A stretch of 64,000 bases of DNA from Escherichia coli O127:H6 str. E2348/69 (GTDB lineage Bacteria; Pseudomonadota; Gammaproteobacteria; Enterobacterales; Enterobacteriaceae). Position 1 is the stretch's first letter. Each line of letters begins with the position of its first letter. The stretch lies in assembly GCF_000026545.1 (NCBI RefSeq), contig NC_011601.1; one strand, written 5' to 3'. Position numbers: made by a program. Shown one piece after another: positions 3,001-6,000 of this stretch.

Positions 3001-6000
3001 GGCGGTGGAGATTATGGACACCGCGTTTATGAACTCTATCAGCAAATGGAAAAAGTGGGACGAAATGCTTGCGTCACCGTGGTTCACCGTTTACCCAGAC
3101 GTAGGCAACCTCAGCGCCTGGGGCAATGATGTTCCCGCCGAACTGAAACTGGGTATCGACCGTATCGCCGCCATCCATCTGAAAGACACTCAACCCGTTA
3201 CCGAACATAGCCCCGGACAGTTCCGCGATGTGCCGTTTGGCGAAGGCTGTGTCGATTTTGTTGGCATCTTCAAAACGCTGCATGAGCTGAACTATCGCGG
3301 ATCATTTCTGATTGAAATGTGGACCGAAAAAGCCAAAGAGCCGGTGCTGGAGATTATTCAGGCGCGGCGCTGGATTGAAGCGCGTATGCAGGAGGCCGGA
3401 TTTATATGTTAGAGCAACTGAAAGCTGACGTGCTGGCGGCAAACCTGGCGCTTCCCGTTCATCATCTGGTGACGTTCACCTGGGGCAATGTCAGCGCGAT
3501 GGACGAAACGCGGCAATGGATGGTGATTAAGCCTTCCGGCGTTGAGTATGAGGTAATGACCGCCGACGATATGGTGGTGGTTGAGATAGCCAGCGGCAAG
3601 GTGGTGGAAGGCAGCAAAAAGCCCTCTTCCGACACGCCAACGCATCTGGCGCTTTACCGTCGCTTTGCGGAGATTGGCGGCATAGTGCATACCCACTCGC
3701 GCCACGCCACCATCTGGTCGCAGGCCGGACTTGATCTCCCCGCCTGGGGCACTACTCACGCCGATTATTTTTACGGAGCCATCCCCTGCACGCGCCTGAT
3801 GACCGCAGAAGAGATCAACGGCGAGTATGAATACCAGACCGGCGAAGTGATCATTAAAACCTTCGAAGAGCGTGGGTTGAACCCGGCACAAATCCCAGCG
3901 GTACTGGTGCATTCTCACGGCCCGTTCGCCTGGGGAAAAAATGCCGCCGATGCGGTGCATAACGCCGTGGTACTGGAAGAGTGCGCCTATATGGGTCTGT
4001 TCTCGCGCCAGCTTGCGCCACAGCGCCCTGCGATGCAAAACGAACTGCTGGATAAGCACTACCTGCGTAAGCATGGGGCCAATGCCTATTACGGGCAGTA
4101 GCCATACCTGATAGTGCCCGGCAATACACGCCGGGCAGCCTTTCACATCAGAACAGCCCCAACGGTTTATCCGAGTAGCTCACCAGCAGGCACTTGGTTT
4201 GCTGGTAATGCTCAAGCATCATTTTGTGGGTTTCGCGGCCAATGCCTGATTGTTTGTAGCCGCCAAACGCCGCATGTGCCGGGTAAGCGTGATAACAGTT
4301 GGTCCACACGCGCCCGGCCTGAATGCCGCGCCCCATCTTATAGGCCAGATTACCGTTGCGGCTCCAGACGCCCGCGCCCAGACCATATTGCGTATCGTTC
4401 GCCAGCTCCAGCGCTTCTTCCATCGTTTTGAAGGTGGTTACCGCCAGCACCGGGCCAAAAATCTCCTCCTGGAACACGCGCATATTGTTCTGACCAAACA
4501 GAATCGTCGGTTCGAGGTAGTAGCCGTCTTTCAGTTCGCCTTCCAGCAGCTTGCGTCGCCCGCCGGTGAGCACATCAGCGCCCTCTTTTTTACCGATATC
4601 AATGTAGTTGAGGATGGTTTCCAGTTGCCCGTGAGAAACCTGCGCGCCCATTTGCGTCACGCTGTCGAGCGGGTTACCGCTGCGAATGCTTTCGACACGG
4701 CGGATAGCGCGTTCCATAAAGCGTTCGTAGATAGACTCCTGCACTAAAGCACGGCTTGGACAGGTGCAAACTTCGCCCTGGTTAAAGGCAAACAGTGCAA
4801 AGCCTTCCAGCGCTTTATCGAAAAAGGCATCTTCTTCATCCATCACATCAGCAAAGAAGATATTTGGCGATTTGCCGCCCAGCTCCAGCGTCACCGGAAT
4901 AATGTTTTGCGTGGCGTATTGCATAATTTGTTGGCCCACTTCCGTTGAGCCAGTAAACGCCACTTTGGCGATGCGTTTCGAGGTCGCCAGATATTCGCCA
5001 ATTTCCCCACCTGCGCCATTGACCACGTTCACCACCCCTGGCGGCAGTAAATCACCGACGATTTCCATTAGCAGCAGTACAGAAAGCGGAGTAAGACGTG
5101 CGGGTTTCAGCACCACACAGTTGCCCGCCGCCAGAGCGGGAGCCATTTTCCAGCTCGCCATCAGCAGCGGGAAGTTCCACGGGATAATCTGCCCCACCAC
5201 GCCTAACGGCTCATGGAAATGATAGGCCACGGTTTCGCTATCAATTTCACTGATCCCACCTTCCTGCGCCCGAATACACGAGGCAAAATAGCGAAAATGA
5301 TCAATCGCCAGCGGCACGTCGGCAGCACTGGTTTCGCGAATGGGTTTACCGTTATCCCAGGTTTCTGCCGTCGCTAAAAGTTCAAGGTTTTGTTCCATTC
5401 GATCGGCAATCTTAAACAGAATCGCCGCACGATCCTGCACCGAGGTGTGCGCCCATTTATCTTTCACTTTGTGCGCAGCATCCAGCGCCAGATCGATGTC
5501 TCGTTTGCCCGAAGACGCCACTTCGCACAGTAGCTGCCCGGTCACCGGCGTCAGGTTCTGGTAATACTCGCCGTCGGCAGGGGCTACCCATTCGCCGCCA
5601 ATAAAGTTGTCGTAGCGGGCTTTTAATTTGAGGGGGAAACCATACTCGCCGGGCTTAATCTGTGCTGAAGGGGGATTATTGGTCATGATCGTCTCCTTGC
5701 GGTGTGAGGTATAACAAGGGTAGACGTGACTGGCGAAATCTTCGCCAGTCGGTGACAGCTTTACGACGGCTATCACGAATTTACGGGCAAGGGTTACAGC
5801 GGATAATGCGCGAAGTACACGGCTTGCTGGTCATTAATTTTCTTCTCTTGCGCAAACCCTTCTTTAACAATTGTCCGTAAATCAGCTCGAGCCGTATTAT
5901 CAGAGACGCCCAAGCTCGCGCTAATTTCAGCAACTGTGTACTCTTTCCCCGGATTGGCGAGCATCACATTCAGGAGCGTTACCTGGCGCGGATTCAGGCG

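Follow-up and report, generated by a model that had tools for sequence, protein, structure and literature searches.

A palindrome between fic and aldB in Escherichia coli appears to be a conserved element of the aldB control region

The aldB gene of Escherichia coli is a textbook stationary-phase gene under the control of RpoS, Crp and Fis, and it is reportedly induced by ethanol. Five Fis footprints and a Crp footprint have reportedly been obtained at its promoter. Promoters recognised by sigma-S share the -10 consensus KCTAYRCTTAA (C at position -13, then TA...T). Fis also acts at the dps promoter, which offers a comparison for the element described below. Promoters of the MerR type (zntA, merT) have a 19-20 bp spacer with a dyad at its centre, the dyad centre being about 12.5 bp away from the -10 hexamer on the upstream side. 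As for aldB itself, the title of Xu & Johnson 1995 (cited in PMC12648084) describes it as Fis-repressed, Crp-activated and RpoS-dependent.

The locus considered here belongs to a 64-kb stretch of E. coli O127:H6 strain E2348/69, analysed as a whole and called the window below. A perfect inverted repeat precedes aldB, and both are carried as follows.

4148-5686, minus strand: aldB, in agreement with the RefSeq annotation of E2348/69
5684..5686, minus strand: start codon of aldB
5728..5750, minus strand (aldB sense strand): the dyad, GACTGGCGAA-gat-TTCGCCAGTC
5730-5748: conserved core of the dyad, CTGGCGA-N5-TCGCCAG, from the alignment of orthologues

On the plus strand, the repeat occupies 5728-5750, with arms at 5728-5737 (GACTGGCGAA) and 5741-5750 (TTCGCCAGTC) separated by a 3-nt loop (atc). 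Each arm is 10 nt long, their complementarity is 100% and no further Watson-Crick extension is possible. The distance from the fic stop codon down to the dyad is 43 nt, and that from the dyad down to the aldB ATG is 41 nt. The sequence that follows it is ACGTCTACCC on the sense strand and GGTGACAGC on the plus strand, neither of which is a T-tract, and a terminator scan of both strands made no call at the dyad. The arms and the scan therefore confirm the perfect 10-bp inverted repeat without T-tract that an earlier note on this DNA had placed between the fic stop and the aldB start. An intrinsic terminator was rejected: the 10-bp stem with 6 G-C pairs is present but the U-tract is missing on both strands.

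Perfect inverted repeats with arms of 10 bp or more and a loop of 3-8 nt occur four times in the window, versus 0.49 +/- 0.85 in first-order Markov simulations of these 64 kb; such repeats are thus about 8 times commoner in the window than in the simulations. The occurrence of one of them somewhere in 64 kb is unremarkable, and the chance expectation scaled to the 107-bp spacer is about 0.001. The significance of the dyad derives from its conservation across genera and not from its mere presence in 64 kb. Near matches to its motif are found in the window at 42655, 60636 and 62083, all within long ORFs, and probably reflect CTG-GCG codon usage. A REP/BIME-type repeat was discarded, as the motif is found at a median of one place per genome and not in many copies.

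The vicinity of fic makes it tempting to relate the dyad to the acquisition of this gene. The features that bear on this question are the following.

5794-7089, minus strand: fic, a 431-aa Fic-domain gene (Fic domain confirmed)
5794..5796, minus strand: stop codon of fic, within sequence common to K-12
5800-7167, minus strand: fic-bearing segment of 1368 bp, absent from K-12 according to a base-by-base comparison
7183..7203, minus strand: canonical yiaY terminator (hairpin, then CTTTTTC), upstream of the fic cassette
7219-8370, minus strand: yiaY

The boundaries of the cassette are 5799/5800 and 7167/7168, one G being common to both breakpoints. The last codon of fic and its stop codon sit in sequence common to K-12, outside the 1368-bp segment. 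On the aldB sense strand, the nearest boundary precedes the dyad by 49 bp, which leaves the dyad outside the cassette and not, as previously described, at the aldB-fic junction. In K-12 MG1655, which lacks fic, aldB directly follows yiaY and the spacer includes an identical 23-bp dyad, at K-12 coordinates 3756553-3756575. The fic junction is covered in 1575 of the 5356 E. coli genomes that match the region, whereas about 3,780 genomes stop matching at the cassette boundary yet include the dyad. The gene is found at the same place in E. albertii, and the dyad is found without fic in Citrobacter, Enterobacter, Kluyvera and Pluralibacter. The search for the dyad in fic-less strains that the earlier note had recommended is thus positive in K-12, in most E. 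coli and in other genera. It had also suggested that the dyad could be a scar of the event that placed fic here, to which a terminal repeat or a target duplication may be added. This idea has in its favour the position of the dyad between fic and aldB and nothing else, and has practically no chance of being right: the dyad of fic-less genomes and the 49-bp gap to the cassette refute it, and no second copy of the dyad was found at the other cassette boundary. The link between fic and the dyad is coincidental.

The dyad follows aldB and not its neighbours. In 5356 of 5426 complete E. coli genomes, a 35-mer centred on it is present in a single copy, with exact matches to the K-12 form in 4402 genomes and to the E2348/69 form in 179. 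An AldB scan of species-representative genomes and a metagenome scan whose pattern did not specify the dyad gave 54 distinct orthologous sequences, a set from which duplicates, the false match L170 and L006 (dyad lost) were left out. The dyad is found upstream of aldB in Escherichia (including E. albertii), Citrobacter, Enterobacter, Kluyvera and Pluralibacter, and in a degraded form in Leclercia; it is absent from the aldB orthologues of Acerihabitans, Serratia and Brenneria. The gene upstream of the dyad and aldB varies (yiaY, fic, selB, a divergent ROK-family gene or a divergent glyoxalase-like gene).

In the 54 sequences, the alignment runs without gap over 40 columns, from the dyad through the -10-like element described below. 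The invariant columns are T9, G10, G11, G13 and A14 in the dyad and T34, A35, T39 and T40 in the -10-like element. The half-sites CTGGCGA/TCGCCAG (7 bp) are nearly invariant and the length of the loop is constant, while the 5-nt centre varies within an A/T-rich composition. Indels are seen immediately outside the 40-column block, in the spacing to a CRP-like site and in a second hairpin (HP2). Judged from this comparison of orthologues, the dyad is to be regarded as an old conserved part of the aldB control region that is independent of the upstream gene. The proposal that it is a regulatory dyad for aldB is supported by comparative evidence, namely its movement with aldB, its fixed register with the -10-like and CRP-like motifs and its conserved core.

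Read along the sense strand, the region consists successively of the CRP-like site, a gap of 11-13 nt, the dyad core, a sigma-S-type -10 element, a variable hairpin and AAGGAGA-N5-ATG.

5762..5777, minus strand: CRP-like site CGTGATAGCCGTCGTA, pattern (C/T)GTGA-N6-TCG.A, kept in all Enterobacteriaceae orthologues
5717..5723, minus strand: CTACCCT, sigma-S-type -10 element (C at -13, then TACCCT), from conservation in the 54 sequences
5690..5726, minus strand: HP2, second predicted hairpin, CGUCU-AC-CCUUGU ... GCAAGG-AGACG, from folding and orthologues

CTACCCT is always located 18 nt downstream of TGGCGA, the part of the dyad core to which the 11-13 nt that separate it from the CRP-like site were also counted. 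HP2 pairs an anti-SD stretch with the Shine-Dalgarno sequence AAGGAG of aldB (5693-5698). L009 and L177 keep the -10-like element (as CTATTCTTA / CTACCCTTAA) separate from the anti-SD arm that overlaps it elsewhere. As the element is kept apart from the anti-SD arm in these two lineages, it would be conserved as a promoter element. The transcription start of aldB would then lie near 5710, about 7 nt downstream of the hexamer. Counted from this predicted start, the dyad would span -18 to -40 with its centre at about -29, over the -35/spacer region, and the centre of the CRP-like site (5769.5) would be at about -59.5. No aldB start site or 3' end turned up in the supplementary data of Peano 2015, Adams 2021, Ettwiller 2016 and Kim 2012.

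Several known types of sites were compared with the dyad and discarded. A CRP or CRP-S site does not fit, as GGCGA and TCGCC are 5 bp apart instead of 6 and a better CRP-like site exists at 5762-5777. As regards a MerR-type operator, the first base of TACCCT comes 17 bp after the dyad centre instead of about 12.5 bp. LexA and LacI-family operators have the wrong spacing or position in a by-eye comparison with their consensus sequences. A -10 element in the dyad loop (class II CRP promoter) would have a hexamer whose A2 and T6 are not conserved, and a sigma-28 promoter would have a spacing of 9 nt instead of 11. In a preprint, aldB is a predicted target of CyuR; the CyuR motif has its best match (18/23) within yiaY at -189, away from the dyad.

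A sigma-54 (RpoN) promoter deserves more attention, as AldB relatives elsewhere are under sigma-54/AcoR control. The sense strand TGGCGAAGATTTCGC includes GG-N10-GC (-24/-12) and resembles glnAp2. However, the -12 GC is replaced by AC (TCACC; column 22 = A) in 12 of the 54 orthologues, and no activator gene flanks aldB in E. coli. In the supplements of a sigma-54 ChIP-seq study, aldB appears only in the expression table, without the binding-site identifier that yeaG has, and its expression is about 3-fold lower in an rpoN mutant (PMC4591121). This decrease is probably indirect, since it is common to classic RpoS-dependent genes such as dps. Altogether, that the dyad is a sigma-54 promoter is very improbable.

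The reading that we favour, tentatively and while doubting it slightly more than we believe it, is that the dyad serves as a DNA operator whose centre lies near -29 of the predicted start, in the -35/spacer region, with Fis as the candidate binder. It relies in part on the following stretch.

5732..5746, no strand assigned: Fis-core-like stretch of 15 bp, GGCGAAGATTTCGCC, as read from the sequence

The mechanism could be viewed as follows: the dyad would act as double-stranded DNA and serve as the operator of a dimeric protein, which, sitting over the -35/spacer region, would block RNA polymerase and thereby repress aldB. Fis, a published direct repressor of aldB, might be this protein: its dimer, if centred at about -29, would cover the promoter, in agreement with the reported repression of aldB. 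The Fis core consensus used for comparison is the one reportedly given in Shao 2008 and Stella 2010. GGCGAAGATTTCGCC has its main determinants (G and C at -7 and +7, A and T at -3 and +3, an A/T-rich centre), and the corresponding positions G10, A14, T20 and C24 are invariant or nearly so in the 54 sequences, with the 5 central nucleotides A/T-rich. The preference for a pyrimidine at -4 and a purine at +4 is not followed, the orthologues having G at -4 and C at +4. The dyad core took third place when the K-12 stretch between the end of yiaY and the aldB start was scanned ad hoc with the Fis consensus. Alternatively, the binder might be a dedicated regulator other than Fis, since the half-sites are more conserved than Fis needs. 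An operator is supported by the invariance of the half-site sequence, of the half-site spacing and of the register to the -10 element, as well as by the single copy per genome. It is disfavoured by the partial fit to Fis (departure at -4/+4, ad hoc score) and by the placement of the aldB start from motif conservation only.

In the main competing reading, the dyad is a hairpin of the sense-strand RNA that insulates aldB from upstream read-through, together with HP2, which masks the ribosome-binding site. Transcripts would enter from a co-directional yiaY, selB or fic or from an upstream start; the stable stem would shield the message of the upstream gene at its 3' end, or would pause or process the read-through RNA, and only the transcripts of the RpoS-dependent promoter would be translated, HP2 sequestering the ribosome-binding site of aldB otherwise. 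We regard this as possible but rather doubtful. The covariation and the relation to upstream gene orientation given below are compatible with the transcript-stabilising hairpin that the earlier note had also considered. The 121-nt leader region folds at -38.2 kcal/mol (z = -4.5), with the dyad as a 10-bp stem, and 80.6% of the cells are paired (n=54) versus 20-42% in controls with the partners shifted by 1-3 columns. The covariation score reaches 0.154 versus 0.121 after shuffling (0 of 500 shuffles reach 0.154), and at most 0.069 in the slid controls. For example, pair 7-27 is GC in 25 and AU in 19 of the 54 sequences, these states and their intermediates all being found within Escherichia, Citrobacter and Enterobacter-like groups. 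The pairs lying further out covary as well (CCGG/CCGG, CUGG/CCAG, CCGA/UCGG, GUGA/UCAC), which a protein site alone does not predict and which thus also weighs against an operator. Watson-Crick pairs amount to 8.2 of 9 below a co-directional upstream gene versus 6.3 of 9 below a divergent one (Mann-Whitney p = 1.3e-4, in a test that ignores phylogeny, the divergent group being largely one clade); this weaker retention next to a divergent gene fits an RNA role better than an operator. Moreover, Citrobacter, L009 and L010 have no other hairpin between the upstream stop codon and aldB.

HP2 adds to the case for RNA. Its inner pairs vary between genera yet remain complementary, and the G.U pairs of L135 and L142 work on the sense strand only. 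These compensatory changes imply that some relevant transcripts start upstream of the putative -10 element, which does not favour an operator at the dyad.

Conversely, several features of the dyad do not behave as expected from an RNA hairpin. Its third pair is a C.A mismatch (TCACC) in 12 of the 54 sequences, under both orientations of the upstream gene, and perfect dyads persist in some genomes with a divergent upstream gene (L194). The invariance of the 7-bp core, of the loop length and of the distance to the -10 element exceeds what structure needs. There is neither a U-tract nor an Rfam match (Rfam covariance models gave nothing relevant at E <= 10 over 5300-7400), and the supplement text of a K-12 3'-end map includes no 3' end assigned to aldB. 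Among the non-Watson-Crick cells, 18 would allow a G.U wobble on the sense strand and 22 on the antisense strand, so that there is no strand bias and sense-strand G.U cells are not in excess over A.C cells. A strand-biased wobble had been considered as proof of an RNA; it was an impression from few variants that vanished in the full count (18 vs 22). The folding energies of the dyad are also alike on both strands. Such a symmetry of wobble cells and folding energies is what is predicted for an element that acts at the DNA level.

Template switching during replication is a documented way in which quasi-palindromes are corrected in E. coli. If the dyad is an operator, the covariation of its outer pairs could result from this process and not from selection on each pair. 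Taken further, the same process might explain the whole palindrome, which would have no present function of its own within a constrained promoter and whose perfection would be restored by template switching in a way that mimics compensatory evolution. The symmetry of the covariation between strands and the joint changes of the outer pairs, as the arms lengthen or shorten between lineages, are in line with this explanation. We nevertheless consider it quite improbable, because the core half-sites are conserved as strongly as the -10-like element across several genera, and because the dyad decays in one genomic context while the flanking motifs stay, which argues for a constraint that can be relaxed.

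A composite view can also be drawn, in which the dyad and HP2 form a two-part insulator that keeps aldB silent on upstream transcripts while the dyad is, in addition, the operator of a new regulator. It is speculative and, in our opinion, unlikely. If true, it could account for the ethanol induction that aldB is said to show, and the classical RpoS/CRP/Fis promoter would hold an undescribed control element that is conserved across Enterobacteriaceae.

No paper turned up in a full-text literature search with the sequences of the dyad, the -10 element and the CRP-like site, and searches for aldB together with SELEX, ChIP-exo, Fis footprints or leader hairpins yielded nothing on the dyad. The dyad is a real, conserved and apparently undescribed cis element of a well-studied promoter, and it is ordinary in kind. 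Its assignment to the ancient control region of aldB corrects a tempting but wrong link to the accessory gene fic, the cassette of which now has boundaries fixed to the base. It also defines, in several genera, a compact promoter layout that would combine a CRP-like site, a palindrome, a sigma-S -10 element and a hairpin masking the Shine-Dalgarno sequence. The practical consequence is modest, as it concerns a local regulatory detail of one gene.

Compared with known systems, the dyad resembles an intrinsic terminator by its G+C-rich 10-bp stem, its short loop and its location downstream of a stop codon, but differs from it by the lack of a U-tract on either strand and of any call in the scan. 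It is similar to intercistronic hairpins in being a stable G+C-rich stem-loop without U-tract that lies between co-directional genes and undergoes compensatory changes. In the same way, the succession of the dyad and of a hairpin that pairs with the Shine-Dalgarno sequence recalls the leader hairpins that sequester this sequence. Unlike REP-type 3' stabilisers, it is single-copy and located within the promoter of the downstream gene, and, unlike stabilising hairpins, its sequence, loop length and register are conserved far beyond structural need. A perfect dyad that has a constant half-site spacing, does not shift relative to the -10 element and is single-copy evokes the operators of dedicated dimeric repressors, from which it differs in that no cognate regulator gene lies beside aldB in E. 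coli; none of the E. coli motifs compared (CRP, CRP-S, LexA, LacI-family, MerR-type, CyuR) fits it. Fis sites are normally degenerate and poorly conserved, in contrast with this 23-bp perfect palindrome, with its invariant half-sites, its covarying outer pairs and its misfit at -4/+4. It is nevertheless like a Fis operator over a sigma-S core promoter (that of aldB or of dps) by its dimer-sized extent, its palindromic form, its G/C at +/-7 and its A/T-rich centre, and also by its position over what would be the -35/spacer region of an RpoS-dependent promoter whose gene is reported to be repressed by Fis.

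A 1368-bp segment (5800-7167) that carries fic between yiaY and aldB is missing in K-12. Its breakpoints share a microhomology of 1 nt. The segment occurs in 1575 of 5356 complete E. coli genomes (about 29%) and at the identical site in E. albertii. Therefore, it may be ancestral to Escherichia and may have been lost by deletion in K-12-like lineages. Several repeated or paired sequences lie around this segment and elsewhere in the window:

7095-7124 and 7145-7174: 30-nt palindromic unit present twice, TATCTCAA...TTGAGATAGT
7183-7203, minus strand: yiaY terminator, whose stem starts with CGGCTGGCGAG
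5690-5726, minus strand: second predicted hairpin (HP2), CGUCU..CCUUGU paired with GCAAGG..AGACG
34429-34455: perfect 10-bp inverted repeat, TACGCCAGCG...CGCTGGCGTA
44517-44544: perfect 10-bp inverted repeat, GCCTGCCTGA...TCAGGCAGGC

The last two have loops of 7-8 nt. The two 30-nt units are located 50 bp apart, immediately upstream of fic; the Fic protein, or a partner of it, may use them as paired operators. The second one crosses the boundary of the cassette and, having a 13-bp perfect stem (7142-7175), is called as terminator-like. In Enterobacter-like genomes (for example the locus L095), the 11-mer that opens the stem of the yiaY terminator also makes up the left arm of the dyad of aldB (the perfect inverted repeat found here at 5728-5750). 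A duplication of the dyad might be the origin of this terminator, which is specific to Escherichia.

Two structures are predicted in the control region of aldB. On the minus strand, the CRP-like site of E2348/69 can fold into a predicted 8-bp stem (5752-5776; GUGAUAGC/GCUGUCAC), in which K-12 differs at two positions. The predicted pairing of HP2 would mask the Shine-Dalgarno sequence of aldB. The sequence of its inner stem changes between genera while complementarity is kept (TGTAG/CTACA, TGTTG/CAACA, TGAAG/CTTCA, TTGTGA/TCACAA and CCTTAC/GTAAGG). The 5' arm of HP2 overlaps the -10-like element (5717-5723), which conflicts with the aldB start proposed near 5710 from motifs.

The neighbourhood of aldB varies. 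In E2348/69, the end of aldB comes directly after sgbE (annotated araD) at 4101-4148, and yiaT-yiaW, located between these two genes in K-12, are missing. In the Enterobacter/Leclercia/Pseudescherichia group, yiaY is replaced upstream of aldB by a divergent gene of the ROK family, about 150 bp from aldB (loci L004, L005, L006 and L008, and related metagenome loci). The dyad has decayed independently in several sequences of this group (L005, L006, L008, L131 and L188); despite this decay, the CRP-like and -10-like motifs are intact.

The best match to the published CyuR motif (18/23) is found in K-12 (locus L001, around 4690-4712), at the 3' end of yiaY, at -189 from the aldB ATG. The prediction of aldB as a CyuR target in a preprint probably stems from this site.
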